Shown here: positions 103 through 64,000 of the stretch, piece by piece | Numbering within the stretch: position 1 is the first letter of the stretch | Layout: each line of letters begins with the position of its first letter | Virus record (IMG/VR): IMGVR_UViG_3300009182_000002 | Span: 33,730-97,729 of that record | Length of the DNA stretch: 64,000 bases | Direction: 5' to 3' (one strand) | Origin: a virus | Position numbers and translations under genes: made by a program | The notes under the pieces: generated by a model | Told to the model about the DNA's origin: nothing | Databases searched by the model: none | What the model saw: only the letters and a program-made list of their open reading frames with translations

Positions 103-1551
103 TTGACAACTGGACTGCCCACATTCGCCGCGCTGATTCGCAGCGCGCCGGGTCCTGACAACCGCTGGTGCGAGGTCCTCATCGTGAGGTCCTTCGACAC
201 CTTCTCACCGCTGCACGTTCCCGGCGTTGGACCAGCGCCGCTGTTCTACATCCGGAACACCGGGGGCGGTCGGGGACCGTCCAACGCATGGGTCGCCGTC
301 ACCGACGTTCCTGCTCAGGAGCGCGCTGCATGGTGCGGCAATGACCCTCTCGTCGTGCCGCTCACCACGCACGACGTGACCGCAGTTGCTAGCGCTCGCA
401 ACTTGCCGCCCAAGTCGCTGCTCACGCGGCTCCAGTCGCGCATCGACCGCGTGCCGCTCAATCAAGCCGTTGGGCTAACCATTGGCAACGTCGTTGACGC
501 TCTGGTGCAGGCCACCGACGTGTTCGCCACGGTCGTGCCTGCTGCTCCCAAGGTCGCCCCGGCTCAGGTCGTGGTGGCCGCGCCGGTCATTCCTCAGGTG
601 TCGGCCATCCCGGCTCCCGTGCTGACAGTGCCGGTTGCCAGCACGGCACCGGTTGCCAGCGCTGGTCCCGTGGTCGTGCTTGACGACGACCAGCCCGACT
701 CCGACGACGGCTCCGTCACGGTCGTCGTGCAGGACGGCGCGTGCCGCAAGGCCATCGTCCTGCCGCCGTCGTTCGCTGACTCGTACATCCACCGTGCGGT
801 GTTCGGAGTCGATGACTTCACGGTGCTGGATGAGGCACGGGCCAAGGGCGACAGCGTCGGGCTGTACGGCCCCACGGGCTCTGCCAAGACCACCGTTGCC
901 AAGGCTTACGCGGCAGCGCGCGGTCTCCCGTATGTGCAGGTCTCAGGCACCGCGACGATGGAAGAGTCGCGGATGTTCGGTCGCTGGATCGACCTTGGCC
1001 AGTGGCAGGACGGCGTCGTCAGCGAGGTGGTCCGCTACGGCGGTCTACTCATCCTTGACGAGATCAACATGCTCCCGCCGAACATCAGCGCGAGCCTGTT
1101 CCCGCTGCTTCGCGAGCGGGTCCTCACCCTGCACGACAAGGACGGCGAGACCATCACCGCCCACCCGTCGCTGATCGTCATCGCGACGTGGAACCCGAAC
1201 TACTCCGGTACGCGCGAACTGAACGCCGCGCTCGCCAACCGGTTCGGGGTGCAGGTTGAGTGGGGCTACGACGACCGTGTTGAGAAGGCGCTTGGCATCT
1301 GCAACAGCCTTCGCGCTGCTGCTGGTCGCCTTCGTGCCAGCGAGGTCAAGGGCGAGGTCAGCGCCCCCTGCCCGACCAACGCGCTGGTTGACTTCCAGCA
1401 CTACGCCGGTCGGCTGGGGCTGGACTTCGCGGTTGGCAACTTCGTCGCCCGGTACCACGACGATGTTGAGCGCAAGGCCGTGCAGGCCGTGTTCGACACC
1501 TTCCGTTCCAGCATCGAAAACGAGTTGGGGCTGGCTCAGGCAACCGTCTGA
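103..1551 (+). CDS. MoxR/CbbQ/CobS-like AAA+ ATPase
   Basis: Walker A GPTGSAKT, Walker B LILDEIN, ATWNP sensor, ALANRF Arg finger; SD AGGAGAG before TTG. Confidence 0.9.
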   Translation: MTTGLPTFAALIRSAPGPDNRWCEVLIVRSFDTFSPLHVPGVGPAPLFYIRNTGGGRGPSNAWVAVTDVPAQERAAWCGNDPLVVPLTTHDVTAVASARNLPPKSLLTRLQSRIDRVPLNQAVGLTIGNVVDALVQATDVFATVVPAAPKVAPAQVVVAAPVIPQVSAIPAPVLTVPVASTAPVASAGPVVVLDDDQPDSDDGSVTVVVQDGACRKAIVLPPSFADSYIHRAVFGVDDFTVLDEARAKGDSVGLYGPTGSAKTTVAKAYAAARGLPYVQVSGTATMEESRMFGRWIDLGQWQDGVVSEVVRYGGLLILDEINMLPPNISASLFPLLRERVLTLHDKDGETITAHPSLIVIATWNPNYSGTRELNAALANRFGVQVEWGYDDRVEKALGICNSLRAAAGRLRASEVKGEVSAPCPTNALVDFQHYAGRLGLDFAVGNFVARYHDDVERKAVQAVFDTFRSSIENELGLAQATV

Positions 1552-1615
1552 GCCAGCACCAGCACCACCTAGCAAGCCCTACCAACCACTACCAACCTCT
1601 AGGAGAGCGATCACC

Positions 1616-2542
1616 TTGGCAATCACTTCACCCCTCACCGCCGACCGCTTGCTTGGCCCCGGCGCTGAACGTGGCGAGCGGCTCGCACGCCTCGCCGCCA
1701 TCTTCACCAAGTCCAACAGCATCCTGTCCGGTCAGTCGGTCAAGGTGCGTATTGAGACCAACGACTGGGCTTGCCCACCGGCCCCGGCATGGTCCGATGG
1801 CCAGAACATCTGGTTCAAGGGCAGCGACATTCGTGACGCTGACTTCGACTCCATCGTCAACCTGTACGGTCTCAACTACCACGAACTGGGCCACATCCTG
1901 TGGACACCCCGTCAGTCGCACCCGCTGGCGACTTGGGCTTGGCGCAACCGTCACTGGTCCACGATGAACCTCTTGGAAGACCAGCGCATCGAAACGGCGA
2001 TGACCCGCCGCTGGCCTTCGACGGCACCGTGGCTCACCGCGTGCGTCCTGCGCTGGGTGCTGGCCGACCCCAAGACCCTCAGCACGTCCTACCTGCTGCT
2101 GCGTGGTCGTCGCTTCCTCCCGGCTGACGTGCGCGGACTGTCACGTCAGGCCTTCGAGCGTCAGGACCTGCTCCCTGAGGTTGACCGCATCGTTGACGCC
2201 TACCGGGAACTGCGCTTCCCAGAGAAGCCCAACCTGCGCCGCGTATCGGAGCGCAACCTGTACGACCGTGCTCAGGCGCTGATCACCGACTACAGCGCGC
2301 TGATTGCCAGCCTTAACAACCAGCCCACGTCGTCGCCTAACCACGGCAACGACGAGACATCACCGGTAACCAACGGCTACCCAGCGCCTCACGATCCCAA
2401 TGAGGCCAACACCGACGACCAGTACGACGACGAGCCCCAGCCCGGTCAGGGTAGCGACGGGGACCAGAACGACCAGCACGACGACACCAACGACAGCGGC
2501 GCGGGCACCCCGTGCTGCTCCTGCGACGGAGGCAGCCACTGA
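1616..2542 (+). CDS. HExxH metallopeptidase-like protein (N-terminal half of a CobT-like MoxR partner)
   Basis: HELGH plus NLLEDQRIE motif; acidic tail; TTG start after AGGAGAG (1601-1607). Confidence 0.8.
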   Translation: MAITSPLTADRLLGPGAERGERLARLAAIFTKSNSILSGQSVKVRIETNDWACPPAPAWSDGQNIWFKGSDIRDADFDSIVNLYGLNYHELGHILWTPRQSHPLATWAWRNRHWSTMNLLEDQRIETAMTRRWPSTAPWLTACVLRWVLADPKTLSTSYLLLRGRRFLPADVRGLSRQAFERQDLLPEVDRIVDAYRELRFPEKPNLRRVSERNLYDRAQALITDYSALIASLNNQPTSSPNHGNDETSPVTNGYPAPHDPNEANTDDQYDDEPQPGQGSDGDQNDQHDDTNDSGAGTPCCSCDGGSH

Positions 2543-3735
2543 TGAACGACGACACCATGCCCAACACAAGCGCCTGCTCCTGCGGTTGCCACGGTCCTGC
2601 CGCTGGCAACGAGCCTGCCAACGACCAGCCGGGTGGCTCTGGCAACGAGCCGGGTCAGCCCCAGCCCGGCAACGAGCCGGGTCGGCCCGGCAACGGCGAC
2701 CAGCCCGGCGACCAGCCCGGCGAGGGCGAGGGTCAGGGCGAGGGCGACCAGCCCGGTGAGTCCGACGGCGGCGGCGCGAACGGCGGCGCTGGCTCCGACG
2801 GCGAGACCGGGCTGGACGGCGGCGAGGCCAACGGTGCTGGCACCGGGGTTACCAACGCCCCCGACATTGCCAAGGCCTTGCAAGACGCTGCTAGCAAGGC
2901 TCTCGACAACATCACCAACGACGTCGATATCGCTGGCGAGGCCAGCAGCGCTGTCAACGCTGTTGTCAAGGGCGGCGGTCACGTCCAGATCCTGCGCGAC
3001 TCCCGCTTCGACACCTTCGCCCCCAGCGACGAGGCTCGCCTCGCTGAGCGCCGCGCGGTGCGGGAGTTCAACACCCTCCGCGCAGACGCTGAGGAGGGCT
3101 GGGACCGCGCCCGTCCGCAGGGTCGGCTGAACGTCGGTCGCTACATCTCTAGCAACGGGGACCTTGACGTGGCCTTCGACCAGTGGCGTGACCGCAAGGG
3201 TGACGCCTCCGACCTTGAGGTTGTGCTACTGCTGGACGACTCAATGTCCATGGCTTCCTACCGCGTGGTCAGCGCGGAGGCCATGTGGGTACTCAAGCGT
3301 GGCCTTGACGCCATCGGTGCCAACACCACGGTGGTCATGTTCCACTCCGAGTCCCGCGTCCTGTACAAGCCGACCGACAAGGCTGAGGCGGGTCGCCTCC
3401 GCTGCTCAACTGAGAGCGGCGGCACTGACCCCAGCGAGGGCATCGCTCAGGCGGCGCGCATCTTCGCCGGGAGCCGCAAGGGTCAGAAGGTGCTGATCAC
3501 CATCACCGATGGCGACTACTGGGGTGAGTCTGTCCCTGCCAACTGCGACTACAACATTGACGACATTGTCAAGGCCATGACCAACAGCGGCGTCGTCACT
3601 GCTCAGGTCCTGTTCAACCACGCGAGCGAGCAGACTCACGGGCACGCGATCAGCACTCAGGTCTCGCAGGTTGAGGAGATCGCGTCCTTTGCCAAGGAAC
3701 TTGTCAAGGCTGCTATCAAGTCTCGCCAGCGCTAG
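2542..3735 (+). CDS. von Willebrand factor A (vWA) domain protein
   Basis: MIDAS DDSMS, GGT, ITITDG; Gly/Asp/Gln-rich N-terminal linker; TGATG overlap with the upstream gene and GGAGG at 2528-2532. Confidence 0.85.
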   Translation: MNDDTMPNTSACSCGCHGPAAGNEPANDQPGGSGNEPGQPQPGNEPGRPGNGDQPGDQPGEGEGQGEGDQPGESDGGGANGGAGSDGETGLDGGEANGAGTGVTNAPDIAKALQDAASKALDNITNDVDIAGEASSAVNAVVKGGGHVQILRDSRFDTFAPSDEARLAERRAVREFNTLRADAEEGWDRARPQGRLNVGRYISSNGDLDVAFDQWRDRKGDASDLEVVLLLDDSMSMASYRVVSAEAMWVLKRGLDAIGANTTVVMFHSESRVLYKPTDKAEAGRLRCSTESGGTDPSEGIAQAARIFAGSRKGQKVLITITDGDYWGESVPANCDYNIDDIVKAMTNSGVVTAQVLFNHASEQTHGHAISTQVSQVEEIASFAKELVKAAIKSRQR

Positions 3736-3744
3736 CAACGGGCT

Positions 3745-3849: not shown

Positions 3850-3887
3850 TGGTGCGACGAGCGCACCTAGCAACGAGAGGAATGCCA

Positions 3888-5239: not shown

Positions 5240-5760
5240 TGACTACCACCAACCAACCCACCGTTGACGAGCAGCGCGCACAGGTCTTGGCTGACAACCC
5301 CGGCCTTGACAAGGCGTTGACAACCAACCACCACATCGTTGAGGACATCTCCGCCCGCTTCGCTGCGACCGGTCGCCTTTCCGAGAAGCAGATCGCGCTC
5401 GTCTTCAAACTCGCCAAGCAAGACGCTGCCGCTAAGCAGCGTGAGGCTGAGCGCGAGGTAGCAGACATGCTGGTCCGCGAGTCTGGCATCACCATCACCC
5501 CCGGCAAGCAGGTCATCTTCGGAAGCGTCGTGTCTCTCAACCTGAAGGACAGCGGCTTCGGCCCGACGTGGAAGATGATCGTTGAGCACCCCAGCGGTCT
5601 GAAGTACTGGGGCACCGTCCCTAGCAACCTCGTCGGTGCTCTTGCCAAGGGTGATCAAGTTGAGTTCACCGCAACCGTGTCGGTCTCCGACAACGATCCA
5701 AAACCCATCTTCGGGTTCTACAAGCGCCCGACCAACGCCGCACTTATCAAGTCGGCCTGA
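5239..5760 (+). CDS. Hypothetical protein with a possible C-terminal OB-fold
   Basis: TGATG overlap; beta-rich C-terminus (GDQVEFTATV...GFYKRP). Confidence 0.7.
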   Translation: MTTTNQPTVDEQRAQVLADNPGLDKALTTNHHIVEDISARFAATGRLSEKQIALVFKLAKQDAAAKQREAEREVADMLVRESGITITPGKQVIFGSVVSLNLKDSGFGPTWKMIVEHPSGLKYWGTVPSNLVGALAKGDQVEFTATVSVSDNDPKPIFGFYKRPTNAALIKSA

Positions 5761-6250: not shown

Positions 6251-6394
6251 ATGGAGCAGGTCATCAACATCGACTTCACAGACCTTGACGACGCTTACCA
6301 CAAGATCGTCAAGTTGCTAGTAGACAACGGAATGGTTGACCGGGAGGCGCGCGTTTCGGCGCGCTTCCTGCTCGCCGGAGTGGAGGACAAGTGA
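6251..6394 (+). CDS. Small hypothetical protein
   Basis: ATG right after the upstream stop; GTGA overlap downstream. Confidence 0.6.
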   Translation: MEQVINIDFTDLDDAYHKIVKLLVDNGMVDREARVSARFLLAGVEDK

Positions 6395-6887: not shown

Positions 6888-6894
6888 TGTACCG

Positions 6895-7409: not shown

Positions 7410-7850
7410 ATGGAGACAACCATCTACAACGGCCCTGCCCGATTCATTGGATACCGTGGTCGCGAGTGCAAGACCGACCGCATCCGCGAGGTCGTGATCC
7501 AACTGTCTGACGGCACGCTCCACACCGAGTACTTCTGTGAGCAGTGCGACTATCGCGCGGCTAAGTCCGCGTCGGTGCGCGGTCACTTGTCGCTGCACCC
7601 ACTGCCGGGTAAGCCCCGCAGTGGCCGTCCTGTCGGGTCGCGCAAGCGCTCGCGCCACAGCGACGAGGTCAACGAGGCGATTGAGCGCGAGATCGCTCGT
7701 CGTGTTGAGCGAGAGTTGCAGCGCGGTGCAAGCAAGCGCTCGCTGGAGCGAGAGGTTGCTAGGCAGAGGTTGGCGGAGGTTCGCCGCGAGAACCGCGAAC
7801 TTCGCAAGCGCCTCAAGAACATCCGGGCAGCCATCGTTGGCAACGTTTAG
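7410..7850 (+). CDS. C2H2 Zn-finger / coiled-coil protein, possibly DNA-binding
   Basis: CEQC-x12-H-x3-H; AT-hook-like GRPVGSRK; C-terminal coiled coil; SD AGGAGG. Confidence 0.75.
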   Translation: METTIYNGPARFIGYRGRECKTDRIREVVIQLSDGTLHTEYFCEQCDYRAAKSASVRGHLSLHPLPGKPRSGRPVGSRKRSRHSDEVNEAIEREIARRVERELQRGASKRSLEREVARQRLAEVRRENRELRKRLKNIRAAIVGNV

Positions 7851-14153: not shown

Positions 14154-15089
14154 TTACTGCCTGTAGATCGCTGCCCTGCGGGTGAGGACATCTGCGGATG
14201 GGAGGTCTACGCCGTAGGTCTCTGCCTCGTGTGACTCACGAGCGGACTCGGCGTACTGCTTGATTTGCTTGAGAGCGCCAACTGCGCCGGACTGCTTTCC
14301 TGCTTGCCAACGGTAGTTGTTGAAGTCGGAGTAGCCGCTACCAGTCATGGAAAACGCGATCTTCCTACCGTGATGAATCTCGTCGTAGAGAGACTCTGCC
14401 GCTGAGATGGCGTGCTGGAGTCGAGACTCCGCGTTCACCCGGTACGCAGGGTTGCTAGTTGCTCGTACATCCGTGAGCGCCTGCGAGTACCGCTTTACCA
14501 ACTCCGTGGTCGTGTCGTAGTCACGCTGTGACTTCTGCTCCCATGCACGGCTGAACGGGGCGTGGGCAGATTGGTCGGGCTCTACGGTCCACTCATCGGC
14601 GGTCAGGTTGTACGCGGCGTACGGGTTGATGGCCCGAATGTCGGTAGCGCCGGGGTTTACGTAGAAGGTGACCTCGTACCCGTTCCAGTCAGCGGTGTTG
14701 GGCATCAAGTTCTCGTTGAAGTCCTCGTTCATCAACTGAGAGATGTCAGTGTCCGAGAACCCCATGAACTCCATGTTGCACTGACGGAAGATCGGGTAGT
14801 CGATGCCAACAAGCACGTCGAGATCCCCGGGAACCCTCGTTGCTGACCATTGGTAAGAGACCCCGGAGCCTGCGATCCAAGCAACGGTCCACCTCTCCGG
14901 GGCAACGTAACTGTGGGCAAGGCTGTTGATAAGCATGTGCAGAAGAGTGTTGCGGACCCATGGGCGAAGATGGCTACCCACGAAAAGCCGGGGGTCCAGT
15001 TCGCCAGAGGGGTCCGAGAAATACGAGGTTGACGACGGACTAACACTGACCGGCCTACTGGCCTTGGAAAGTTCATCCGCGTAACTCAT
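14154..15089 (-). CDS. Pol-beta superfamily nucleotidyltransferase
   Basis: AGS-x(n)-GDLDVLV plus a third acidic residue in YEVTFYV. Confidence 0.75.
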   Translation of the reverse strand: MSYADELSKASRPVSVSPSSTSYFSDPSGELDPRLFVGSHLRPWVRNTLLHMLINSLAHSYVAPERWTVAWIAGSGVSYQWSATRVPGDLDVLVGIDYPIFRQCNMEFMGFSDTDISQLMNEDFNENLMPNTADWNGYEVTFYVNPGATDIRAINPYAAYNLTADEWTVEPDQSAHAPFSRAWEQKSQRDYDTTTELVKRYSQALTDVRATSNPAYRVNAESRLQHAISAAESLYDEIHHGRKIAFSMTGSGYSDFNNYRWQAGKQSGAVGALKQIKQYAESARESHEAETYGVDLPSADVLTRRAAIYRQ

Positions 15090-18014: not shown

Positions 18015-18352
18015 CACCAAGTCCCCGTTCCTTGCGAATTTCGTGAGGTACCGGAGTAGCCGCCGGGTCCACCCGAGTAGTTCTGAGACGGGAAAGACAC
18101 TGCGTCTATATCTGTAATGATGTCTGTAATGCTTAATTCTCGGGTCCTATACCCGAACCGAGGAGGGAACGGATTGACCTGCGGGAGAGGCGGTCGAACC
18201 ATCTCTTGCAACTCAGCACCCGGAACTAGGGCGGCCTCTAAAGCCAGCGTTGTTAGGCGCTCTTCGTTGCTAGCAAACGGGCGGTTCTGAGACCACGGCG
18301 GCAACTGATTCCACGGCTTGGTGTGGTCGTACCTACCATCGGGCTGGCTCAT
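18014..18352 (-). CDS. Pro-rich hypothetical protein
   Basis: ATGA overlap. Confidence 0.65.
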   Translation of the reverse strand: MSQPDGRYDHTKPWNQLPPWSQNRPFASNEERLTTLALEAALVPGAELQEMVRPPLPQVNPFPPRFGYRTRELSITDIITDIDAVSFPSQNYSGGPGGYSGTSRNSQGTGTW

Positions 18353-19641
18353 TTGCCTTTACCGCCCTTGGCTTTCTTTGGAGTGAAAAGCGCCAATTGA
18401 CCCGTAACCTCAGAAGGCTTCTCCTCTGGTGGCTGCGTCGGTCGCACATAGGCGTCATGCTCGTTAGTCTCACCCGCGTGCAAACGCTGTTGGCCCCACT
18501 GAGCGGCCTGAGTCCAGTGAACGTTCTTGAGTCCGTGCTCCTGCATAACGTTCCGACCAACATGGTCAAAGAAGGAGTGAACACCCGAAATGCTCATCAT
18601 CTTGTCCTTGTCTTCCTTGGACAGATGAGGAGCAAATCCCATGGCCGTATGAGTGTCTACAACCATGTGACCGTTGCTTGCGTTGGGGTCTAGCCACGCA
18701 TGCAGATATGGACCAGTCTTGGGGCCGAACGGGTCCTTGCCCTTACGAGTGCGGACTTCGCTTAGGTCTGATCCGTTCATCAACTGGCGTGAGACATGGA
18801 CTGTCTCCTTCATCTTTTCAACGCTTCTAGCGCTGGGATGAAAAGATCCCAAGTCGTCTTCAGTGATGGCATCAATGTCTCGGTCGCTCTTTGCGTAGTT
18901 CAACGCCCACTGAGCGGCTTCGTCGTTGTGATGCACCGTTCGGTTCTTGTTTCGCTCTTCAAAAGGCAACTGAGGACTGAGCATTGCGTGCGCTGCGGCG
19001 GCAACATGGAAGCCAACCCCAAACCGGCTCGCAGTGTCCATCACCTGCTGTCGCGGCTTCGGGCTGCCGTCCCTGTGGTACCCAGTATCAAAGTAGAAGG
19101 GGGCGGCGTAAGGCTGGTTGGTTCCAGTCTTCTCCGACATGTCCTTGCCCTTGGCAACAGCCTGAACCACCTGTGAAGAGAACGATTTGTGCGCCGAGTC
19201 GGAAGACACTCCGTACTTCTTCAATGCGCCTAGAACCCGCTGCTGTTGCTGCGGCGAGAAGTCTTCCCACTTCGCTCCGGGGCTACCAAGAGACTCGGCT
19301 GCTCCTCTGGTTTCGGCGATACGTCGGCGCGACTCGTGCTCGATAGAAGAGCCAAACGCATCCTTACCCTCAGGAGTTGCTAGGAACGACATCTGATCAC
19401 CATCGTGCTCAGACCGCATCGTCTTACCCGACAGGTAATCCTCGAAGTGAGTGGCAGCCTGATTCTCGGCAGCCCTAGCAACGCTCATATCAACGTCTGG
19501 GGTTTCAAAGCGACCAGTGTCGGCACCCTTGCCAGTTTCAAAGGCGTTTCTACGTCGAGTACCTGCTGAAGCCTGTTGAGGTGAGACGCCGGACTTGCGC
19601 TTTGTCGTATCGGAAGCCTGACGCTTGGTGTATCTGGGCAT
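18349..19641 (-). CDS. Protein with HhH/DNA-glycosylase-like fold motifs
   Basis: A.LSPQ...N, GPKT..Y, VVDTH, QAAQW pattern; long low-complexity N-terminus. Confidence 0.5.
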   Translation of the reverse strand: MPRYTKRQASDTTKRKSGVSPQQASAGTRRRNAFETGKGADTGRFETPDVDMSVARAAENQAATHFEDYLSGKTMRSEHDGDQMSFLATPEGKDAFGSSIEHESRRRIAETRGAAESLGSPGAKWEDFSPQQQQRVLGALKKYGVSSDSAHKSFSSQVVQAVAKGKDMSEKTGTNQPYAAPFYFDTGYHRDGSPKPRQQVMDTASRFGVGFHVAAAAHAMLSPQLPFEERNKNRTVHHNDEAAQWALNYAKSDRDIDAITEDDLGSFHPSARSVEKMKETVHVSRQLMNGSDLSEVRTRKGKDPFGPKTGPYLHAWLDPNASNGHMVVDTHTAMGFAPHLSKEDKDKMMSISGVHSFFDHVGRNVMQEHGLKNVHWTQAAQWGQQRLHAGETNEHDAYVRPTQPPEEKPSEVTGQLALFTPKKAKGGKGK

Positions 19642-20704: not shown

Positions 20705-20781
20705 CCTGAAAGCACCACCGATACGACGAAGAGGAAGAAGATGACCACGAAGACCCAGAGAAACCGTTCGATGGTGGTCAA
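20701..20781 (-). CDS. 26-aa hydrophobic microprotein MTTIERFLWVFVVIFFLFVVSVVLSG
   Basis: Translated by hand; 4-nt overlaps on both sides, GGAG upstream. Confidence 0.55.
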   Translation of the reverse strand: MTTIERFLWVFVVIFFLFVVSVVLSG

Positions 20782-23788: not shown

Positions 23789-24335
23789 ACGCTGTGTCTC
23801 CTAATCCGGCGGCAATACGGGCTAGCCCGTAACTGTCTGCCGCGTTGTCGTCTGTGAATTCGACCCCCCACTTCTTGTAGGTGTGGAGGAGGATCATGTT
23901 CTTCTGAATTCCGGTGCCCTTGCCCGTCACGTATTTCTTGAGCGAGGCCGGGGCGACTTGCAGTGGGTACTGTCCTGCGCTGTCTAGCAACTCGCACAAG
24001 CAAGCAAGCCGAACGACGCCCCACAACTCCCCGGAGATCAGCGCGCTGTGGCTCATACGCACTGGGGACTCTGCGGCTACGTCGAACACGACGTTGCCTT
24101 CACGTTGTAGGTCGCTGAACTCGTTCATGGTCCATACCCAGATGTTGCACAGACGGTCGATACCGCTACCCGGCGCGCGATACACGCGGGTACGGTGCTG
24201 GAGACCGTCGATGCTGAGCACGGTCATGGCGAATCCAGTGTATGACTGGTCGATTCCGATGGCTACGATTCCCGGGCTGTCGAGAGCCCCCCACTCTCGT
24301 ACCTCAGACCGCACAGCCATCGCAGAGATACTCAC
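23703..24335 (-). CDS. ruvC: RuvC-like Holliday junction resolvase
   Basis: IGIDQS, E, P..LKK..TG.G...K, DN.ADS motifs. Confidence 0.85.
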   Translation of the reverse strand: MSISAMAVRSEVREWGALDSPGIVAIGIDQSYTGFAMTVLSIDGLQHRTRVYRAPGSGIDRLCNIWVWTMNEFSDLQREGNVVFDVAAESPVRMSHSALISGELWGVVRLACLCELLDSAGQYPLQVAPASLKKYVTGKGTGIQKNMILLHTYKKWGVEFTDDNAADSYGLARIAAGLGDTAYEQEVIRKLQDDKYRDGGNGFTVDPRNN

Positions 24336-47182: not shown

Positions 47183-49585
47183 TCAAGCGGTACCGAGGTC
47201 AGCGATTCCGGTTGAACCACCGATCTTGATGACCATGTTTCCTTCGGTGTATGTGTCCTTGGCGTACCCAGAACCTTGTGAGGCAGTGAACGCCGAGGTG
47301 CCGCTTCGGAGGCCAGACAACAGCCTTAGAACTCCTCCAGTTCCGCTGGAGATCATGTCCGTGTCGTTTCCTCCGGACAGGCTCAACAGATCAACGGTTG
47401 CGTATCCGATTTCGGCCAGTTTGGACAGTTCTCCAGCGATGGACTGCTTTCGGACCACCGCTCCCATCTCGATGTTCTCGTAATCGAAGATGGACAGGAT
47501 GGTGTCCTTAGCAGCCTTGATCGCGGCGGACTGAGCAACAGTCGATTCGACGTAGATCGTTGCGGTGATCATTACGTCTTCGTACAAGGGGCCAGAGACG
47601 GTGACGTTGGTTCCAGCCGAGGAACGTTCCTCAAGGAACGCCTCCACCTTCCCGCGAAGCGCTTCGAAGTCGGTGTCTTCTCCGCTGATAACAACGCCAG
47701 CGCTAGCAACTGCGTTGGTACCTGAGTTTCCATCAGCCGCGCTTGCCACTGTGCTGCTGGTGCTAGCAGTCAGCGAACTGCTGGTGTAGGAGAAGGTGAA
47801 GGAGTTGGTGGAGATGCTGGTGACGGTCGCCGCCACCGATCCACCAATGGTCACCTTCTCACCGACCTGAGGAAAGTTGAGCGGAGTTGTGGCTACCACG
47901 GGGCTCGTTCCCGTTTGGAACGTGGCGGTACCGGTAGCAGGAGTTGCAGTGCTTCCGGTACCGAGCGTCCCGCTCGTAGTGATGCCGGTAGTTGTAGTGC
48001 TGATTCCAGCGGAGTAACGAACTGTCGGCCTTCCAACCCCGGTGCTGGGGTCTGGGTTGGCGCTGTCCGAGGTTATTAGTGTGAAGGGGGTGTTCGACTT
48101 GTCGTACCCGTCTCCCAATCCCGATACCGACATTGTGCCCTGAGTGAGGTACTTGGTCGTGAGCGTTGCCGCCGAAGAAGTACTGGTGCTCGCTGAGTAG
48201 GTGAATGTCGTCGTGCTGGGAACGGACGCGATGGTGAATGAGCCGTCGTAGTTGGAGTCCCCAAAGTAGACAGTTACGGTCTGACCGGCGGTAAACCCGT
48301 GGGCAGCAGTCGTGGTGACCGTGCGCGTAGTGGTAGACGAAGTTCCGGAAGCCGCTGTTGCCGTGATGATTCCGGCTGGGATAGAGGAAAGCACCAACGT
48401 GTTAATGGTGCTGGTGCGGTATCGAGCGAGAACCGAAGCGACGTAGTAGCCGGGCGCTGCGTAGCCGGAGGACGACTGCGGAGAAACGTAGAGCGTCACC
48501 GAGGTTGCGTTGTTAGCCCTTGCTTGGGCTTTGGCAACGCCGGGGTAGGTGAGTGCAATATCCGAGAAGTCCCGCTTCGTTACCGCGCGGTTGCGGCTTC
48601 GGAATGTGGCCGGGGCGTTCTTTCGGATGCTCGCGTTGCTTTCGGGCTCGGTACCACCAAATGCATCCGAGTTAGAGATGCCGTAGAGGTTCGCCGGTCC
48701 AGTTAGCCGAGTACCCGCAGGGACGTTTCCGAATCGCCCACCACCGGTTCGGTACGTGGCGTAGATGGTGTGGTCCTTCGGAGGAATGCGACCGTTCACG
48801 CCGTCACCGAAACGCAGGCGAACAGAGTCCGCGTCCACGATGAGGCTGTAGGCGTTCTGGGAGGGAAGGAGAGCGGCAAGCCCGGTCGTGCGGGCGTAGA
48901 TGATGGGGCCGTTGTCCCACGCGGTGTTACCATAGCGGGCGTAGCCGTACAGAGGATCAGCGTTTGCGTTGGCACCGTCGTAGCCGCCGATGGTTCCGCT
49001 GGCTACGTACAGCGAGCCCTCGATCAGGCTTCCGGTCGGGATCACAAATTCCTGATCCGACGACCCATCACTGACGCCCAAAGTCTGCTGGAACGCTGTT
49101 GAGCCCTGAACAGCCCTGACGGTAATGCTTCCATTGGAAGGGACATCGACACTCTTGATGCTGCTCCACGAAATAGCCGCACTGTCCAACTGAACCTCAA
49201 AGACAACCTGTTTCTGAACTCCACCATCTACGACGTTGCCGGTGAACTGCGTCCCCGTGTAGACAGTGGTGGGGGTGCTGCCCGGGTTGTAGATTGTCAA
49301 CGAGCCGATGATTGCGGGCATGGACGTTGCCGGGGTGTATCCGAGCATGCGCGCGATATCGATGACGGACTGACGCTGCGTTGCGGTTGAGAGGTAGGCC
49401 TCGTTAACAACGCGGTCGGTGTAGTAGGAGGTTACGTCCCCCAAATACGCGAACGCTTCCACAAGGGCCAGCCCGACGTCCGAGGGATCACCGGAGTTCC
49501 AGTCAGGAATCCGCTCTTTGATAACGGAGATAAGTTCCTCGCGCAGAGACGCATAGTCGCGAGAGGTGTAGTCGATTGCTGGCAT
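47183..49585 (-). CDS. Baseplate J / gp6-like wedge protein
   Basis: IDYTSRDY, D.G..L.E.FAY.GD, FGDG..G..P, RAVT..DF. Confidence 0.92.
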   Translation of the reverse strand: MPAIDYTSRDYASLREELISVIKERIPDWNSGDPSDVGLALVEAFAYLGDVTSYYTDRVVNEAYLSTATQRQSVIDIARMLGYTPATSMPAIIGSLTIYNPGSTPTTVYTGTQFTGNVVDGGVQKQVVFEVQLDSAAISWSSIKSVDVPSNGSITVRAVQGSTAFQQTLGVSDGSSDQEFVIPTGSLIEGSLYVASGTIGGYDGANANADPLYGYARYGNTAWDNGPIIYARTTGLAALLPSQNAYSLIVDADSVRLRFGDGVNGRIPPKDHTIYATYRTGGGRFGNVPAGTRLTGPANLYGISNSDAFGGTEPESNASIRKNAPATFRSRNRAVTKRDFSDIALTYPGVAKAQARANNATSVTLYVSPQSSSGYAAPGYYVASVLARYRTSTINTLVLSSIPAGIITATAASGTSSTTTRTVTTTAAHGFTAGQTVTVYFGDSNYDGSFTIASVPSTTTFTYSASTSTSSAATLTTKYLTQGTMSVSGLGDGYDKSNTPFTLITSDSANPDPSTGVGRPTVRYSAGISTTTTGITTSGTLGTGSTATPATGTATFQTGTSPVVATTPLNFPQVGEKVTIGGSVAATVTSISTNSFTFSYTSSSLTASTSSTVASAADGNSGTNAVASAGVVISGEDTDFEALRGKVEAFLEERSSAGTNVTVSGPLYEDVMITATIYVESTVAQSAAIKAAKDTILSIFDYENIEMGAVVRKQSIAGELSKLAEIGYATVDLLSLSGGNDTDMISSGTGGVLRLLSGLRSGTSAFTASQGSGYAKDTYTEGNMVIKIGGSTGIADLGTA

Positions 49586-49969: not shown

Positions 49970-51202
49970 TCACACCTCCACCAGAGTCGTGTTTTGCCAG
50001 ACCGCCCCTGTAAAGGCGCGTCCGATGAATCCCTCGTAGTCTCGGGGGATTGTGTTCAACGTGCTGTCGTCAGTGAGAGACCGGAGAGTTTGGTACTGCC
50101 CGACGTCTCTAGCAACGATGTTGTCTCTGACGGCTTCGGACAGGCCTGACGCTGGCTGCGGCTCAGCACCCCGTAGAAGGTCTGACCCAACTTGAAAGTC
50201 CATGAGGTAGCGCGACGTGTCGGTGATCCGATGAACCACCGATAGGACGGTCCAGTAGCCTTCGTAGGGGTTGGGAAGTCCCTTGAGATAGACCATTTTA
50301 TCGGGCGAAGTCACCGGGCTTCCAACGGAGGAGACGCGAGCACGATAGGTAAAGCGGCTCGCCTCCACAGTCGCGTCAAGACTGGCCTGTGCATCCTGAA
50401 TTGAGTTGGTAACCGTGTCCACTGGCTTGGTGAAGATCCCGGATACGTCGTTGAGTCCTAGGCCACGCTCAAGGCTGACAGTCTGCCCGGTGGCGGGGTC
50501 AACGGCCCGCACACTCTTCCGAGTGTTGGACACGCCAATCTCCGGTAGGTAGTCGCCGATGATCGGGTCGAAGTCGAACATCGTTGACAACGTGGACGTG
50601 CTGTTAGAAACCCCGGATGTCATGGTGAGGATCTGAGCCATGGGCTTGTTCTGCGCCTCGAATGTCGCTCGTGAGAGAAACTCGATTCGAGTCTGGTTTG
50701 CCCGGAGCACATACCCGGTTTCCTTGGCAAGGCGGCATAGCAACGCCCAGTCGCTGATGGTCGGTTGTAAAACCGTCTCGTAGATTCGCGGATGAGGTTC
50801 GGTCACTGCGCGGAGTCCGTGTTCCATAGCAATCTTACGAACTACGAGATCCGCCGTGACGTTGGTAAAGGAACGTTGCTTAACGGAGATGAGTGGGAAT
50901 GACGCTCCCACGCACACCACGTCACTGGTGTAGTTGTCCGACCCGAAGTGCGCCCGGACGTGGTGGACGTACCCAACGAACTGGTTACTTCCCCACCGGT
51001 TGCTCCACCGAATCTTCACGGGCGCTCCGGTGGTGAAACTCTTGTGCATGTTGTCTAACTTGCCGCCGTAGGAGACCACCGCAACGTCGTGGCTCCCCTG
51101 CGACTGCCGAATCTCGACCATAGGCATGAGCACGCCGGTAGACCCGCTGAGGGGAAACTCGACGGAGTACTGAGTTAGAGACTTGCGATCCGCGTTAGCC
51201 AT
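49970..51202 (-). CDS. Baseplate hub (gp27/GpD-like)
   Basis: F.GY.H.V, Q...SDW..L.RLA...GY, G.W.V.SV.H. Confidence 0.85.
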   Translation of the reverse strand: MANADRKSLTQYSVEFPLSGSTGVLMPMVEIRQSQGSHDVAVVSYGGKLDNMHKSFTTGAPVKIRWSNRWGSNQFVGYVHHVRAHFGSDNYTSDVVCVGASFPLISVKQRSFTNVTADLVVRKIAMEHGLRAVTEPHPRIYETVLQPTISDWALLCRLAKETGYVLRANQTRIEFLSRATFEAQNKPMAQILTMTSGVSNSTSTLSTMFDFDPIIGDYLPEIGVSNTRKSVRAVDPATGQTVSLERGLGLNDVSGIFTKPVDTVTNSIQDAQASLDATVEASRFTYRARVSSVGSPVTSPDKMVYLKGLPNPYEGYWTVLSVVHRITDTSRYLMDFQVGSDLLRGAEPQPASGLSEAVRDNIVARDVGQYQTLRSLTDDSTLNTIPRDYEGFIGRAFTGAVWQNTTLVEV

Positions 51203-58651: not shown

Positions 58652-58818
58652 GCGGACCTTCCTCTACGACTACGTCTAGCAACGGCTCTTTGCAGCCACT
58701 CGTACCTCTCCCTAGGGGAGAGGGCCCTGATATCGCTCAGGGTCCATCCGGGGTATGCGACAGAGATTGCTTCGTAGGAATCGAGTAGGTTCGCGTATTC
58801 GGTTAAATCAGAGGCGAA
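58648..58818 (-). CDS. Frameshift extension of the tail assembly chaperone (gpGT-like)
   Basis: 57-codon +1 frame (..YPGWTLSDIRALSPRER.EW..) with no ATG/GTG/TTG; stop overlaps the TMP ATG. Confidence 0.7.
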   Translation of the reverse strand, partial: FASDLTEYANLLDSYEAISVAYPGWTLSDIRALSPRERYEWLQRAVARRSRRGRSA

Positions 58819-60267: not shown

Positions 60268-63075
60268 TTACTGGACGTTGATAGAGGTAGCACCGTCGAA
60301 CTGACCGATGCGGATGATGACAAACTCTGCGGGAGTCTGAAGAGCAACGCCGACCTCGATATTCAACTCACCGTCAGCGAGCGACGTGACGGTGTTGTTG
60401 GCTGCGTCGCACTTGACGAAGTAGGCCTCGTCCTGCGTCGCTCCCTTCAAACCACCCTGCTGCCACAACTCACGGAGATAGGTGCCGCAGATATTGCGGA
60501 CCTGCTCCCACAGACGGTCATCGTTGGGCTCGAAGACTGCGAAGGCCGTGAGATCAGCCAGACGCTTCTTTGCCTGAAGCATCGTGCGCCGGGTCGAGAC
60601 GTACTTCATGCGACGGTCGGCACCGACGTTGCGGGCACCCATGACGCAGAAGCCAGCGCCGGGAACCTGACGGATCACGTTCACCGGAGTGAGCGCGGTG
60701 TTCAGCGCGTCGAGATCCGACGAGGAGAACTGGCGCTCCATGGAGATCACGTTGTTAAGGCTCGCGCCGAGACCGGCGGGGGCCTTGAACACTCCACGAG
60801 ATGCATCCGTCTGGAGGATCAGGCCAACAACCGATCCGCCCGGCGGAACCTTGCGCGTGGCGGGGGTACCGGATGAGACCGGGTCAGCGATGTTGACCCA
60901 CGGGTAGTAGATCGCCGCGTTGTTCGACTTCGGCGTGATATCAGCCGCGAATGACTGAGCCGAGGTGGAGTCAAGCAACGCCGGGGTGTCAACCACGACG
61001 AACGAGTCGCCACGGCTGTCAGCGACTGCGATGACGGCGGCGTAGACCGCGCGGCAGTCCGCAGACGAAAGAGCGGCAGCGTCAGGGAAGTTGTAGATCA
61101 GGTTGTTGCCGATGGTGTCAAAGTCATCGGCAGCGTTGATCAGGTCGGTCTTGGTGATGCCACTTCCCTCAAGGGTTCCCGAGGTGTTCACCGTGGTGCG
61201 GACACCAGTGACAGAACCGCTCAGCCCGTTCTGCAAAGCGAGGGTGTAGGTGGCGGTAGCAGCCGAGAGTGCAGCGAAGGAACTCGGGCTCGTCAGCGTC
61301 GTGCCGAACTGCATGGCAGGTGCGAGGGTGACGGTGGCCACCGAACCGACCGTGGCATCGATGATCGCGCTGGCGTTAAGCGTGACCGCGTACGACGAGA
61401 CGGTACCGGCAGCGCTAGCCTGAGCAACACCGCTGGTGTTGCTGATCGTGAAAGTCGTGCTGGTCGGAACCGTGAGAACCGTGAACGAACCGCTGTTGGC
61501 GGCGTTCGTGGTGCTCGCGACAACGACCTGAGCACCGACGAACAGGTTGTGCGCGGCAGCGGTGGTGTAGGTAACTGTCGGAGTGGAGAAGGCGATGGAC
61601 GAAACGTTCACCGTCGTGGTGGTCGCAGTAGAGACGAACGAGTTCGAGTTCAGGGCCGAGGTACCAGCCGAGCGAACAGCGGTCACAGGCTGGCCAACCC
61701 AGAACTTGCCGATGTCGCCGCTAGCAACCGTGATCGCGTTGCTAGCGCCACCAACCGAACTACCGGTAACCGCAACCGAAGTAGCCGACTGAGTCACAGC
61801 GGTCAGGGTGCGGGCGGTGGTGTCGAAGTTGGCGTCGCTGGTGCCAGCAATCGTGATCTGGTCGCTGACTCGGAAAGCGTGGTTGCTGCTCGTTCCGACC
61901 ACACCACCAGTGGTCAGCGAGATTTTGCAGTTGAGCGAAGACTGGATCACCTTGCTGAACGAGAACGAGGTGCTACCCGAAACACCGGTTACGGTGTAGG
62001 TGCCGTTCAGCGAGGCGCTACCGGGGAGACCGGTGTTTGGAGACGTGATATTGACGCCGGTAACAGTGACCACATCGTTGGCCTGAAGAGCGTGCCCGGA
62101 AGCAGTCAGCGTGGCCACACCAGCGCCAGAGACGATGGCGGAGGTCACGGACACCGAGGACAGGTTCGTCACCGAGTAGGGCTTGGAAAGGCCCAGCGGG
62201 ATCGAGGAGGTGGCGGGAGAGCGGTAGACGCTCTTGCTGCCGGTGGTCGGGGCGACGAAGCCGGATGGGCGGCTGAGCACTACGTACTTGGAAGCAGGGT
62301 TCACTACCGAGATTGCGTAGCGGTCGGATGCCGGGTTCAACGAGATGTCGTTGAACTTCTCCACGAGGTAGCCGTTGGTAACGCCGTTGAAGAAGACCGA
62401 CAGTGAGAAGACCTCGCTGGAAGCCGCGACGTAGGCACCGGTCGGAGTCGTGTCGCCAACGTTGCTAGCGGCAGTCGCGAAGGTGAAAGTGGTCGAGGTG
62501 ACTCCGGTGACCGCAACCTCTCCGTACAGACCGGTGGTGCTGATGCCGCCGACGTTGACAACGTCGCCAGCGCTGAGTCCGTGAGGGATCGTCGTGGTCA
62601 TGGTGGCAACGCCGTTGTCCACGCGGTAGGTGGAGATGTTGGTGCGGGGCGTGGTGTCCTGAACCTGAACGGCGATACCGGAGCCGTTAGGAGAGGCGAT
62701 GGCCCAGTCGCCGGGGCTCGACGCGGTCACCATCAGGATGTCCTGCGGAGTCGCGGTGCCATCGTTGAGGGTGATCATCGCGGACGTGGAGTCCGAGGCG
62801 GCGACGCGGTCTACGTAGCAACCGCGACCACCGTTGCCAAAGAACTGGTAAACGGCGTAAGCAAGCCAGTAGGGGTTGCCGGACGAGTCCTTGAAACCTC
62901 CGAAGAGGCGCGAGAACTCGGTCCACGAGGACACGAAGGTCGGGGTGCTGACCGGGCCGCGCTCCGCGCGCCCGGCGAATGCGCCCACGGAAACGTCAAG
63001 GCCGAGAGCCTGAATCTGCTGCGGGAGCAGGACCTCCTCGACAAAGGTGCCGGGGCGGCGGTAGTTGCTAGCCAT
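60268..63075 (-). CDS. Contractile tail sheath protein with inserted beta-domain repeats
   Basis: Y.RPG.FVEE, G.A.RGP...P, FF.NGG, YYPW, RGV.KAPAG, VFEPND..LW, PAEFV. Confidence 0.95.
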   Translation of the reverse strand: MASNYRRPGTFVEEVLLPQQIQALGLDVSVGAFAGRAERGPVSTPTFVSSWTEFSRLFGGFKDSSGNPYWLAYAVYQFFGNGGRGCYVDRVAASDSTSAMITLNDGTATPQDILMVTASSPGDWAIASPNGSGIAVQVQDTTPRTNISTYRVDNGVATMTTTIPHGLSAGDVVNVGGISTTGLYGEVAVTGVTSTTFTFATAASNVGDTTPTGAYVAASSEVFSLSVFFNGVTNGYLVEKFNDISLNPASDRYAISVVNPASKYVVLSRPSGFVAPTTGSKSVYRSPATSSIPLGLSKPYSVTNLSSVSVTSAIVSGAGVATLTASGHALQANDVVTVTGVNITSPNTGLPGSASLNGTYTVTGVSGSTSFSFSKVIQSSLNCKISLTTGGVVGTSSNHAFRVSDQITIAGTSDANFDTTARTLTAVTQSATSVAVTGSSVGGASNAITVASGDIGKFWVGQPVTAVRSAGTSALNSNSFVSTATTTTVNVSSIAFSTPTVTYTTAAAHNLFVGAQVVVASTTNAANSGSFTVLTVPTSTTFTISNTSGVAQASAAGTVSSYAVTLNASAIIDATVGSVATVTLAPAMQFGTTLTSPSSFAALSAATATYTLALQNGLSGSVTGVRTTVNTSGTLEGSGITKTDLINAADDFDTIGNNLIYNFPDAAALSSADCRAVYAAVIAVADSRGDSFVVVDTPALLDSTSAQSFAADITPKSNNAAIYYPWVNIADPVSSGTPATRKVPPGGSVVGLILQTDASRGVFKAPAGLGASLNNVISMERQFSSSDLDALNTALTPVNVIRQVPGAGFCVMGARNVGADRRMKYVSTRRTMLQAKKRLADLTAFAVFEPNDDRLWEQVRNICGTYLRELWQQGGLKGATQDEAYFVKCDAANNTVTSLADGELNIEVGVALQTPAEFVIIRIGQFDGATSINVQ

Positions 63076-63140
63076 CTGGATGGTCTCCTAAATCAGTCTG
63101 GTATTTGGGGGGTGCCGTGGAGGTGTCAGTTGGTTGCGAC

Positions 63141-63731
63141 TTAGGTGTCGATATCGTGAGCGGTGAGGTTGACGGTCTTGACGTTCAAAGCGTGGGCAGC
63201 GTCACTCAAAAGCATCTCAGAGTGGACGCGAACCGTCAGCACATTGCTAAACACTCTGCGCTGTTGATCAGTGAAATCTCTCTTGGTGAAATTCAGGATG
63301 AAAAGGGATCGAACGCTGTCATCCTCTGGGACGTACAACGACTGGTATTTCGGGGTTAGTACTGAGCGGTAGAGGGCATCGAGGATTGCGCGGTCGTGAC
63401 GGGGGTGGCGGGCCCACGTAGTGACTTGGTAATCAAGGTTGTAAGGGACCGGATAATCCCAGAAGACGGTCTCTCCCTGAGTAGGAGGCGTAACTCCCTC
63501 GGGAAGGTGGGGCCACCATTTGGTGCTCACGGTGCCGCGCATCGCACGGTCGGTGGCTTCGGAGACGTCGATCAGATCGACGGTGATGTAGGGGTAGGCC
63601 TGAGCCTGAATCTCAATATCGGGCTGGCCAAACCACACGCCTACGGGCCGAGACGGGTTCTTGTCGTCGGACACCGTGATACCCGAGAGCAGCGTCTTGA
63701 GGGCCTTGTCCTCGTTCAGGATGAAGGTCAT
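63141..63731 (-). CDS. Tail terminator / neck protein
   Basis: YPYIT, P.P..L.YQV; directly upstream of the sheath. Confidence 0.65.
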   Translation of the reverse strand: MTFILNEDKALKTLLSGITVSDDKNPSRPVGVWFGQPDIEIQAQAYPYITVDLIDVSEATDRAMRGTVSTKWWPHLPEGVTPPTQGETVFWDYPVPYNLDYQVTTWARHPRHDRAILDALYRSVLTPKYQSLYVPEDDSVRSLFILNFTKRDFTDQQRRVFSNVLTVRVHSEMLLSDAAHALNVKTVNLTAHDIDT

Positions 63732-64000
63732 CGCACACTCTCCCCAGAGTGCAAGCCGATGCGATTGCGGAATTGCTGCATTACTGCATTCGGAGGCGCG
63801 CTCTGGGTGCCGTACTCCAGATCCTCGACCTTCCTAGCAACGGACTCCGGGTAGTGGATATCGAAGTCGCCGTCGTTGTGCCGCACCGTTAGGTGCCTAG
63901 CAATAGACGTGGGCCAGCCACTCCGGTACGCGGAGCGGCGGAGGCGGGAGGTCAGCCTGCGGGCGGTCTGCTCGCTGGCCTGCACCAGTGCCTGCTCGTA
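63728..64000 (-). CDS. Neck/head-tail protein (partial; frame open to the window edge)
   Basis: LEYGT...PP motif (HK97 gp10-like). Confidence 0.55.
   Translation of the reverse strand, partial: YEQALVQASEQTARRLTSRLRRSAYRSGWPTSIARHLTVRHNDGDFDIHYPESVARKVEDLEYGTQSAPPNAVMQQFRNRIGLHSGESVR

Follow-up and report, generated by a model that had tools for sequence, protein, structure and literature searches.

Excess of an octamer at the DNA level in the genome of an uncultured freshwater actinophage lineage

Background

Why does one asymmetric octamer, GTTGCTAG (CTAGCAAC on the opposite strand), occur over and over in the DNA of a single phage? The question is raised by IMG/VR virus record IMGVR_UViG_3300009182_000002, a 97,729-bp genome classified by IMG/VR as complete, of which bases 33730 - 97729 (64 kb) form the stretch analyzed here, referred to as the window. 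A reading of the window made from its letters alone (the sequence-only reading) had noticed the octamer and had proposed a dispersed self-recognition signal, such as a binding site for a DNA-coating protein, a Chi-like or packaging signal, or a modification target. The present analysis supports that the excess is a DNA-level signal, finds it specific to this phage lineage, and weighs what may read the word.

Copy number and distribution of the octamer

A search of both strands of the window retrieved exactly 32 copies of GTTGCTAG/CTAGCAAC, one at every position listed by the sequence-only reading, versus 1.13 ± 0.99 copies (maximum 3) in dinucleotide-preserving shuffles, none of 100 of which reached 32. 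In the whole genome, 38 copies were present, 21 on the plus and 17 on the minus strand, corresponding to one copy per 2.6 kb, and the octamer is the commonest 8-mer of the genome. The tetramer CTAG, remarked earlier to be usually depleted, is so here as well, occurring genome-wide at 0.52 of expectation; the guanine-plus-cytosine (GC) content, put at about 60% before, was measured as 58.5%. The copies are evenly dispersed along the genome on both strands, and no strand polarity or switch along the genome was found, neither for the octamer nor for its family described below (pattern [GC]TTGCYWR, 92 copies on the plus and 105 on the minus strand). A packaging signal, one of the functions proposed earlier, is unlikely for 38 evenly dispersed copies on two strands.

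Thirty-three of the 38 copies are located in coding DNA, 14 in sense and 19 in antisense orientation relative to transcription. As the word contains TAG, it can be read in four frame and orientation classes only, and all four are in use: 16 copies read xCT-AGC-AAC on the sense strand, nine GTT-GCT-AGx, five xxG-TTG-CTA-G, and three CTA-GCA-ACx, the remaining five being outside called genes. The statement of the sequence-only reading that the word is encoded in different frames and orientations was thus correct. The bases flanking the octamer carry little information. A literature search for the raw word returned primers only.

Excess under composition, codon and codon-pair models

Markov models of orders 0 to 6 predict 2.7, 1.9, 3.1, 3.9, 7.3, 24.5, and 34.6 copies, respectively. 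GTTGCTAG ranks first among all octamers under orders 2 to 4 and was the top 8-mer under every null model. That orders 5 and 6 predict most of the copies indicates that the signal resides in the hexamers GTTGCT, TTGCTA, and TGCTAG and accumulates step by step.

Five null models preserved every protein sequence, the five fixed non-coding copies being included in each expectation. Synonymous permutation gave 7.6 copies genome-wide and 8.1 copies when confined within genes. A Markov chain Monte Carlo permutation barred from creating any of 21 avoided restriction words gave 8.1 copies too, and 7.9 when new copies of TANNNT, the -10 hexamer of actinobacterial promoters, were prohibited in addition, a version that over-constrains, as it ratcheted TANNNT down to 72 copies. 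The highest expectation, 13.6 ± 2.9 copies (maximum 22 in 100 runs), came from a codon-pair random-field model that was trained on codon pairs to which the GTTGCTAG copies themselves contribute. This model, sampled by forward filtering and backward sampling, was calibrated for GTTG (1460 versus 1465), TTGC (941 versus 946), CTAG (187 versus 186), and GCTAG (137 versus 138); a forward dicodon sampler was dropped, as it did not reproduce the GTTG and TTGC counts. Loss of the excess under a codon-pair-preserving shuffle was the outcome that the sequence-only reading had named as speaking against a signal, and with 38 observed copies the excess stays.

The enrichment is similar in all four reading classes, about 6- to 11-fold (16 versus 2.47, 9 versus 0.78, 5 versus 0.44, and 3 versus 0.28 copies). 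The word occupies 16 of 43 [SPTA]-S-N, 9 of 36 V-A-[SR], and 3 of 18 L-A-T contexts, where codon usage predicts 2.0, 0.74, and 0.23, that is 17 - 37% of the permitting peptide contexts instead of 1 - 5%; where the protein sequence leaves the choice, the word prevails over codon preference about one time in three. Rare codons serve to write it, CTA representing 7% of the leucine codons and AGA and AGG together 15% of the arginine codons. In non-coding DNA outside the early control region described below, 24 family sites were found versus 6.65 ± 2.66 in dinucleotide shuffles. Relative to the codon-pair model, the octamer is enriched 3.5-fold in genes common to relatives and 3.8-fold in lineage-specific genes, so that poverty of the left arm as a mark of recent gene transfer was rejected, the ratios of core and lineage-specific genes being equal once opportunity was counted. 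Similarly rejected as a cause was a generic periodic pattern of strong and weak bases (SWWSSWWS), which is enriched 1.24-fold only. Residues at several copies differ from those of relatives, no more often than divergence predicts. An excess that is similar whatever the frame or strand, extends to non-coding DNA, and survives all nulls supports a signal in the DNA itself instead of an effect of protein sequence or codons.

A passive by-product of amino acid sequence, codon or codon-pair bias, high GC content, restriction-site avoidance, or purging of TANNNT is hardly credible as the origin of the word and is largely refuted. Codon-pair structure lifts the expectation from about 8 to 13.6, and avoidance of AGCT and CCWGG forces TTG and CAA codons in some contexts, three of the five copies encoding L-L following xAG. 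However, nulls that incorporate such effects leave a 3- to 5-fold excess overall and one of about 4- to 10-fold in coding DNA, non-coding DNA is enriched as well, and no copy is present in 34 kb of relatives that equal this genome in GC content, zero AGCT, and TANNNT purge. Restriction-site loss and the TANNNT purge do not create the octamer, since the nulls containing both give about 8 copies and these relatives (L218, L219, and L253) contain none.

A degenerate, strand-symmetric word family

The octamer is the top member of a strand-symmetric family that can be written S-TTG-N-Y-A-R, often followed by G or GG. The variants GTTGCCAG, GTTGCCAA, and GTTGCTAA pointed out by the sequence-only reading are in excess too, and its consensus TTGCYAR is better given as S-TTG-N-Y-A-R. 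Among hexamers of the type XXX-N-TA, TTG is the only prefix in excess (304 versus 191), and the suffixes in excess after TTG-N are TAA (99 versus 48), CAA (174 versus 110), and TAG (122 versus 75); it is this coupling that defines the family. Its patterns NTTGCYWR and [GC]TTGCYWR are present 250 and 197 times, respectively. The second most frequent octamer of the genome, TTGCCAAG (36 copies), belongs to it, as do the palindromes CTTGSCAAG and CTTGCAAG.

Compared with the codon-pair model, the single-base variants GTTGCTAA (18 versus 9.1), GTTGCTTG (22 versus 13.7), GTTGTTAG (20 versus 11.9), and ATTGCTAG (8 versus 4.7) of the octamer are enriched, and GTTGCTGG (6 versus 14.9), GTTGCTCG (2 versus 7.5), and GTCGCTAG (1 versus 4.7) are depleted. 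Such grading by position, with variants enriched 1.3- to 2-fold or depleted, is as expected for an additive recognition site. Among other words in excess, TGACGCTG was found 25 times versus 9 - 12 expected and CGCTGACGCTG five times, and the 11-bp palindrome CCTTGSCAAGG has five copies versus about 0.07 by composition, according to our own estimate.

Restriction of the excess to one phage lineage

The genome carries an exact 123-bp repeat common to both ends and 124 called genes that cover 89% of its length. It encodes a structural set with tail sheath, baseplate, and tape-measure-like proteins, a replisome (family A polymerase, primase, DnaB-like helicase, and loader), an UvsX-like recombinase, a RecB/Cas4-family exonuclease, a RuvC-like resolvase, a ribonucleotide reductase, and a TGT/DpdA-like protein. 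Two WhiB genes indicate that the phage is actinobacterial. It is present in freshwater and lake metagenomes of several studies. The accessible relatives are uncultured phages of 80 - 100 kb, mostly of 40 - 50% GC, that share 55 - 82% protein identity in conserved genes; about half of the gene set is lineage-specific.

Four near-complete relatives contain 3 - 9 copies of GTTGCTAG. In the same pipeline, their own top octamers reach at most 15 copies with z-scores of 5.6 - 7.3, versus 11.3 in this genome, and the best of them, ACGGCTCT in relative G002, is an ordinary codon effect, 10 of 14 cases being in one frame (N-G-S). In 80 further related loci (852 kb), 20 copies were found versus 24.6 expected. 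The three IMG/VR relatives of 60% GC mentioned above, which form a branch of this phage group, have no copy in 34 kb, in which the density of this genome would give about 13. They have zero AGCT, TANNNT at 0.29 - 0.33 of composition, normal CCWGG, and no excess of TTGNTAR (12 versus 16). In each 17-kb piece of this genome the top words are family members, whereas in these relatives the top words are unrelated and few; one such word, GGGATACC, occurs five times in 17 kb of their DNA. In scans of viral and metagenome data for closer relatives, identity did not exceed 69% with the TGT-like query or 82% with any other, and a contig scan with the ribonucleotide reductase as query found no relative. 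TGT-like proteins at 68 - 72% identity exist, the only 69%-identity locus with DNA being 1.7 kb long. The octamer excess is specific to this phage lineage. Read mapping placed none of 40 listed variable positions (of 758) within a GTTGCTAG copy, a number too small to bear on selection.

For the host phylum, the word was counted in 457 genomes retrieved by a 23S signature, namely five named genomes, 301 spread evenly over the Actinomycetota, and 151 of the Microbacteriaceae. None was enriched, the maximum being 68 copies in 1.4 Mb (about one per 20 kb). Most have about 10 copies per 3 Mb, typically about one per 300 kb and usually far below the reversed-word control, and the word is 10 - 100 times rarer there than in the phage. 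Eleven of the 301 genomes are unpublished (G130, G011, G184, G236, G058, G249, G028, G158, G092, G278, and G098, with 4 - 38 copies each), and the negative holds without them. The negative applies to the genomes searched.

These counts bear on a word read by the host, one that would mimic a Chi-like (RecBCD/AddAB/AdnAB-attenuating) or uptake sequence and thereby protect or favor phage DNA. An octamer of this density has the right length for such a signal, and the phage DNA has free ends. Nevertheless, this function is very doubtful, as the word lacks strand polarity, is not over-represented in any of the 457 genomes, and belongs to a phage with its own recombinase and exonuclease. The Chi-like option of the sequence-only reading is therefore disfavored.

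Equally doubtful is its modification target, in which a phage enzyme, for instance the TGT/DpdA-like protein, would modify a base at the word, more targets meaning denser protection. This 520-amino-acid protein (window 12120 - 13682, minus strand) matches PHROG 887 (queuine tRNA-ribosyltransferase; E-value 3.6e-47), and TTG-N-T-A-R may loosely recall an anticodon-loop pattern. Yet, it has no Pfam TGT match, and known DpdA targets are GA and GGC, of 2 - 3 nucleotides, unlike a word of eight (PMC7544227, PMC10484667). Moreover, relatives at 54 - 72% identity carry the gene, and every relative with examinable DNA lacks the excess. QueC of the preQ0 pathway was not found in the genome, nor was any match to C5, N4/N6, or Dam-type methyltransferases (PF00145, PF01555, and PF02086), and a modified genome would have less need of the extreme restriction-site avoidance seen here. 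The family of the TGT/DpdA-like protein is very common in freshwater phages of 90 - 100 kb, in which the homologues are all unnamed.

The early control region and a possible reader of the word

Just left of the window, a 1.3-kb non-coding region (genome 32169 - 33504) separates leftward genes from the early rightward operon. The 400-bp segments richest in family sites of the whole genome are located in this region, which has 10 sites of the form TTGCYWR within 700 bp versus 1.35 expected, a number reached in none of 1000 dinucleotide shuffles. Three sites, CAAGCAAC, CTTGCTAG, and TTAGCAAT, abut each other at genome 32350 - 32377, and positions 32360 - 32377 form the only palindrome of the type TTGCTA-N(0-12)-TAGCAA in the genome, TTGCTA-N6-TAGCAA, directly followed by the -10-like TATTTT. 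In addition, the 13-mer GCTTGCTAGGGCC occurs twice, at genome 32358 and 32788 (430 bp apart).

Operators at a divergent early promoter would be expected to show just such a site cluster with a palindrome, which is the main reason for favoring a protein as reader of the word. The favored, if tentative, explanation is that GTTGCTAG is the dispersed recognition site or half-site of a lineage-specific phage protein that would bind double-stranded DNA and have operators in the early control region. Such a protein would serve as a regulator in that region, where the arrangement of sites is strongest. Elsewhere, roughly 40 exact and 200 near-cognate copies would allow it to load over the full length of the chromosome, marking or coating the phage DNA. 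The word being 10 - 100 times rarer in actinobacterial genomes, phage DNA would be easy to tell from host DNA. From the observed enrichment, its DNA-level nature and lineage specificity, the host-phylum rarity, and the cluster with its palindrome, we infer both that a protein reads the word and what its binding may achieve. Among the functions suggested by the sequence-only reading, a binding site would fit best, because the word is rare in the actinobacterial genomes and its family clusters with a palindrome in the control region.

Several points weigh against such a reader. In the control region itself, the sites are CTTGCTAG and further variants, and no copy of the exact octamer is present. 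The lineage-specific early and left-arm proteins scanned had no match to a DNA-binding family in Pfam or PHROG, and no named family came from one Atlas look-up; among the binders suggested earlier, the two WhiB genes are real and the early-region candidates have no DNA-binding family match. Single 8-bp sites within genes are an unusual target for a dimeric regulator. As the copies follow no orientation rule, a stoperator-like roadblock is not indicated. The word is also of modest information content, 24.5 copies being predicted from hexamer frequencies. Lastly, a non-adaptive drive would leave the same static pattern.

In such a drive, a repair, gene-conversion, or mutation process of the lineage would turn near-cognates into GTTGCTAG-like words with no reader and no benefit, comparable to the very-short-patch repair that shapes CTAG and CCWGG in Escherichia coli or to the process that maintains HIP1 in cyanobacteria. 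This origin is unlikely, with a number of observations in its favor: the enrichment is uniform across core and lineage-specific genes, all regions, strands, and frames, and non-coding DNA; some one-step neighbors reachable by transitions (GTTGCTGG, GTCGCTAG, and GTTGCTCG) are depleted; a polymerase, a recombinase, a RecB-family exonuclease, and a resolvase are encoded by the phage itself; and HIP1 shows that saturation with an octamer is possible without a known reader (PMC4390886). However, most other one-step neighbors (GTTGCTAA, GTTGCTTG, GTTGTTAG, and ATTGCTAG) are enriched, no Vsr-type or methyltransferase partner was found in the genome, and the excess is missing in relatives whose replication and recombination genes are orthologous. 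Nor would a blind process be expected to gather sites in a cluster with a perfect palindrome at the main control region.

Taking the protein-reader interpretation further, GTTGCTAG-type sites could be a private 'self' word written across the chromosome, by which a phage-encoded reader tells phage from host DNA. This extension is likewise unlikely. If true, the word could serve coating or protection, selective transcription or replication, or sparing of the phage genome from a phage nuclease, and the sites across the genome would have arisen from an ancestral regulatory site, namely the operator-like palindrome of the early promoter. In a sharper variant, -35-only boxes would capture host RNA polymerase, and the genome-wide purge of TANNNT would prevent them from firing.

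Depletion of the -10 hexamer and a possible promoter-related role

Every A-prefixed XXX-N-TA hexamer, which reads TANNNT on the other strand, is depleted. On both strands together, TANNNT occurs 434 times versus 1748 by composition, 1212 under the synonymous null, and 740 under the codon-pair null, whereas TANNNA, TANNNC, and TANNNG are at null level (0.25 of composition for TANNNT and 0.68 - 0.76 for TANNN[ACG]). Low-GC relatives show a mild TANNNT depletion, at 0.83 - 0.91 of composition.

The purge is at the base of another explanation, in which region 4 of the principal sigma factor of the host would recognize TTG-N-Y-A (TTGCTA, TTGCCA, and TTGACA) as a -35-type box. Landing pads for RNA polymerase would have been multiplied as -35 boxes and -10 hexamers purged, capturing the host polymerase without spurious initiation. 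We consider this rather improbable. The hexamer TTGNYA is found at 2.58 times composition here versus 1.17 - 1.33 times in relatives, and none of the 38 octamers is followed by a T completing TAGNNT. The two WhiB genes are of interest in this respect, as WhiB-like proteins bind sigma region 4. Furthermore, TTGACA or TTGCTA is combined with an A+T-rich TANNNT in four intergenic candidates. Two of them have TTGACA and TANNNT at 14 bp; a mirror candidate of the control region, TTGCTA-N13-TAAAGT, points leftward. At genome 27235 - 27270, TTGACA-N14-TAAAGT is found 7 nucleotides before the ATG of a lone plus-strand gene (27268 - 27519), and looks like a candidate promoter of the leaderless-mRNA type with an unusually short spacer. 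Against this explanation, the candidate spacers are 13 - 14 bp instead of 16 - 18 bp, and spacers of 17 or 18 bp do not occur in any TTGNYA-TANNNT pair. Positions outside TTGNYA (G1 and G8) matter too, many Actinobacteria have no conserved -35 element, and the 60%-GC relatives purge TANNNT equally without enrichment of the family. The purge and the gain of the family are separable, given that these relatives show the purge alone.

Restriction-site loss is a further layer of sequence sculpting. AGCT has no copies in the genome versus 360 by composition and about 290 by codon shuffle, and CCWGG none versus about 240 by codon shuffle; many relatives have zero AGCT too, but not zero CCWGG. Some 16 six-base palindromes are lost or nearly so, with zero copies of ACGCGT, CACGTG, CGGCCG, CTGCAG, GGATCC, GGCGCC, GTCGAC, GTGCAC, TCATGA, and TGCGCA, and one or two copies each of CCGCGG, GCCGGC, CGATCG, ACTAGT, TTCGAA, and CTCGAG. 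The non-palindromic words TCGACGA (0 versus about 26) and AGGATA (0 versus about 23) are also absent; Type IIS, Type III, or Type I-like systems may target them. Restriction-site loss, purging of the -10 hexamer, and gain of the word are three separable layers in one genome, which makes it useful for telling selection apart from mutation bias in the composition of phage genomes.

Copies within the window and neighboring features

The copies of the window are listed in Table 1. Elsewhere in the window, the early region encodes a pyrimidine-dimer DNA glycosylase (6856 - 7314, plus strand; PF03013, E-value 1.7e-25). PHROG matches identify 55772 - 58651 as tape measure and 53121 - 55772 as minor tail or lysin-like. 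At a short tandem repeat in gene 51473 - 53128 (51486 - 51533), contigs of lake metagenomes pile up to a depth of thousands-fold with many rearranged joints; the repeat is probably low-complexity sequence common to other organisms.

Table 1. Copies of GTTGCTAG in the window, with window coordinates, strand, location, codons on the sense strand, and gene.
Position	Strand	Location	Sense codons (peptide)	Gene (strand) and remarks
385..392	+	coding	GTT-GCT-AGC (V-A-S)	103-1551 (+)
3149..3156	-	coding	TCT-AGC-AAC (S-S-N)	2542-3735 (+)
3732..3739	-	overlaps TAG stop codon		2542-3735 (+)
3867..3874	-	non-coding		directly upstream of ribosome-binding site of 3888-4079 (+)
5621..5628	-	coding	CCT-AGC-AAC (P-S-N)	5239-5760 (+)
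6313..6320	+	coding	AAG-TTG-CTA-GTA (K-L-L-V)	6251-6394 (+)
7755..7762	+	coding	GTT-GCT-AGG (V-A-R)	7410-7850 (+); rare Arg codon
12507..12514	+	coding	GCT-AGC-AAC (A-S-N)	12120-13682 (-), TGT/DpdA-like
14451..14458	+	coding	ACT-AGC-AAC (T-S-N)	14154-15089 (-)
18266..18273	+	non-coding		within 10-bp palindrome TTGCTAGCAA
19376..19383	+	coding	CTA-GCA-ACT (L-A-T)	18349-19641 (-)
19475..19482	-	coding	GTT-GCT-AGG (V-A-R)	18349-19641 (-)
21392..21399	-	coding	CAG-TTG-CTA-GCC (Q-L-L-A)	20778-21959 (-), metallophosphoesterase; E-Y-L-A in most relatives
23984..23991	-	coding	GAG-TTG-CTA-GAC (E-L-L-D)	23703-24320 (-), RuvC-like
28412..28419	+	coding	TCT-AGC-AAC (S-S-N)	28331-28606 (-)
30928..30935	+	coding	CTA-GCA-ACT (L-A-T)	29136-31073 (-), DNA polymerase; F-A-T in 23 of 35 relatives
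33341..33348	+	coding	CCT-AGC-AAC (P-S-N)	33017-34528 (-), helicase
42358..42365	+	coding	CCT-AGC-AAC	41125-45321 (-), structural, 1398 amino acids
42940..42947	+	coding	TCT-AGC-AAC	41125-45321 (-)
43960..43967	+	coding	GCT-AGC-AAC	41125-45321 (-)
44006..44013	+	coding	CTA-GCA-ACG	41125-45321 (-)
44347..44354	+	coding	GCT-AGC-AAC	41125-45321 (-)
44905..44912	+	coding	ACT-AGC-AAC	41125-45321 (-)
47703..47710	-	coding	GTT-GCT-AGC (V-A-S)	47183-49585 (-), baseplate
50109..50116	-	coding	GTT-GCT-AGA (V-A-R)	49970-51202 (-); rare Arg codon
56673..56680	-	coding	GTT-GCT-AGC (V-A-S)	55772-58651 (-), tape-measure-like
58676..58683	-	non-coding		25 nucleotides upstream of start of 55772-58651 (-)
61721..61728	-	coding	GTT-GCT-AGC	60268-63075 (-), tail sheath; inverted pair with copy at 61738, 9 bp apart
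61738..61745	+	coding	GCT-AGC-AAC	60268-63075 (-)
62461..62468	+	coding	GCT-AGC-AAC	60268-63075 (-)
63064..63071	+	coding	GCT-AGC-AAC	60268-63075 (-), codons 2-4
63834..63841	-	outside called genes		within open-ended open reading frame 63728-64000 (-)

Comparison with known systems

The sigma-70-type -35 box is TTGACA, with TTGCCA reported for Corynebacterium. The family core TTG-N-Y-A matches this hexamer, and two family sites of the control region are located upstream of an A+T-rich TANNNT. Unlike a -35 box, the spacing is 13 - 14 bp instead of about 17 bp, most copies are intragenic on either strand without a -10 partner, and G1 and G8 contribute.

The closest known phenomena are stoperators, HIP1, and Chi or uptake sequences, and the word fails at least one defining feature of each. 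The stoperators of cluster A mycobacteriophages are the 13-bp sites of the L5 repressor gp71, located mostly in short intergenic spaces and in one orientation to transcription; some 30 copies are present, with related sites at the early promoter, and they are read by a phage protein. Similarly, GTTGCTAG is an asymmetric short site with tens of copies (38 exact) over an actinophage genome; its family cluster and palindrome next to TATTTT in the divergent control region would be a candidate counterpart of the early-promoter sites. In contrast, 33 of its 38 copies are intragenic and sense and antisense orientations are mixed (14 and 19), and the scan of lineage-specific proteins (by Pfam, PHROG, and a single Atlas look-up) yielded no cognate repressor gene.

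HIP1 (GCGATCGC), the highly iterated palindrome of cyanobacteria, has a function that is still debated, and like GTTGCTAG it is an octamer far above expectation genome-wide, in all coding frames and in non-coding DNA (PMC4390886). However, HIP1 is a perfect palindrome of cellular genomes and is linked to orphan methyltransferases recognizing its core (PMC4390886), whereas GTTGCTAG is asymmetric, belongs to one phage lineage, is rare in the host-phylum genomes searched, and comes with no methyltransferase found. Chi and the uptake sequences (DUS/USS), of 7 - 12 nucleotides and read by a protein machine, are also over-represented genome-wide and independent of frame (PMC1939737). They differ in belonging to cellular genomes, Chi being strand-skewed, and in being carried by phages through mimicry (PMC1939737); no actinobacterial genome searched is enriched in GTTGCTAG, and the phage shows no polarity.

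Chi, uptake sequences, HIP1, and stoperators, as iterated words, each led to a protein machine that reads DNA. GTTGCTAG is private to one uncultured freshwater actinophage lineage, its excess being absent from sister phages. If a reader protein exists, marking of its own chromosome by a virus would have taken a new form, and the word would be the handle for finding this protein.

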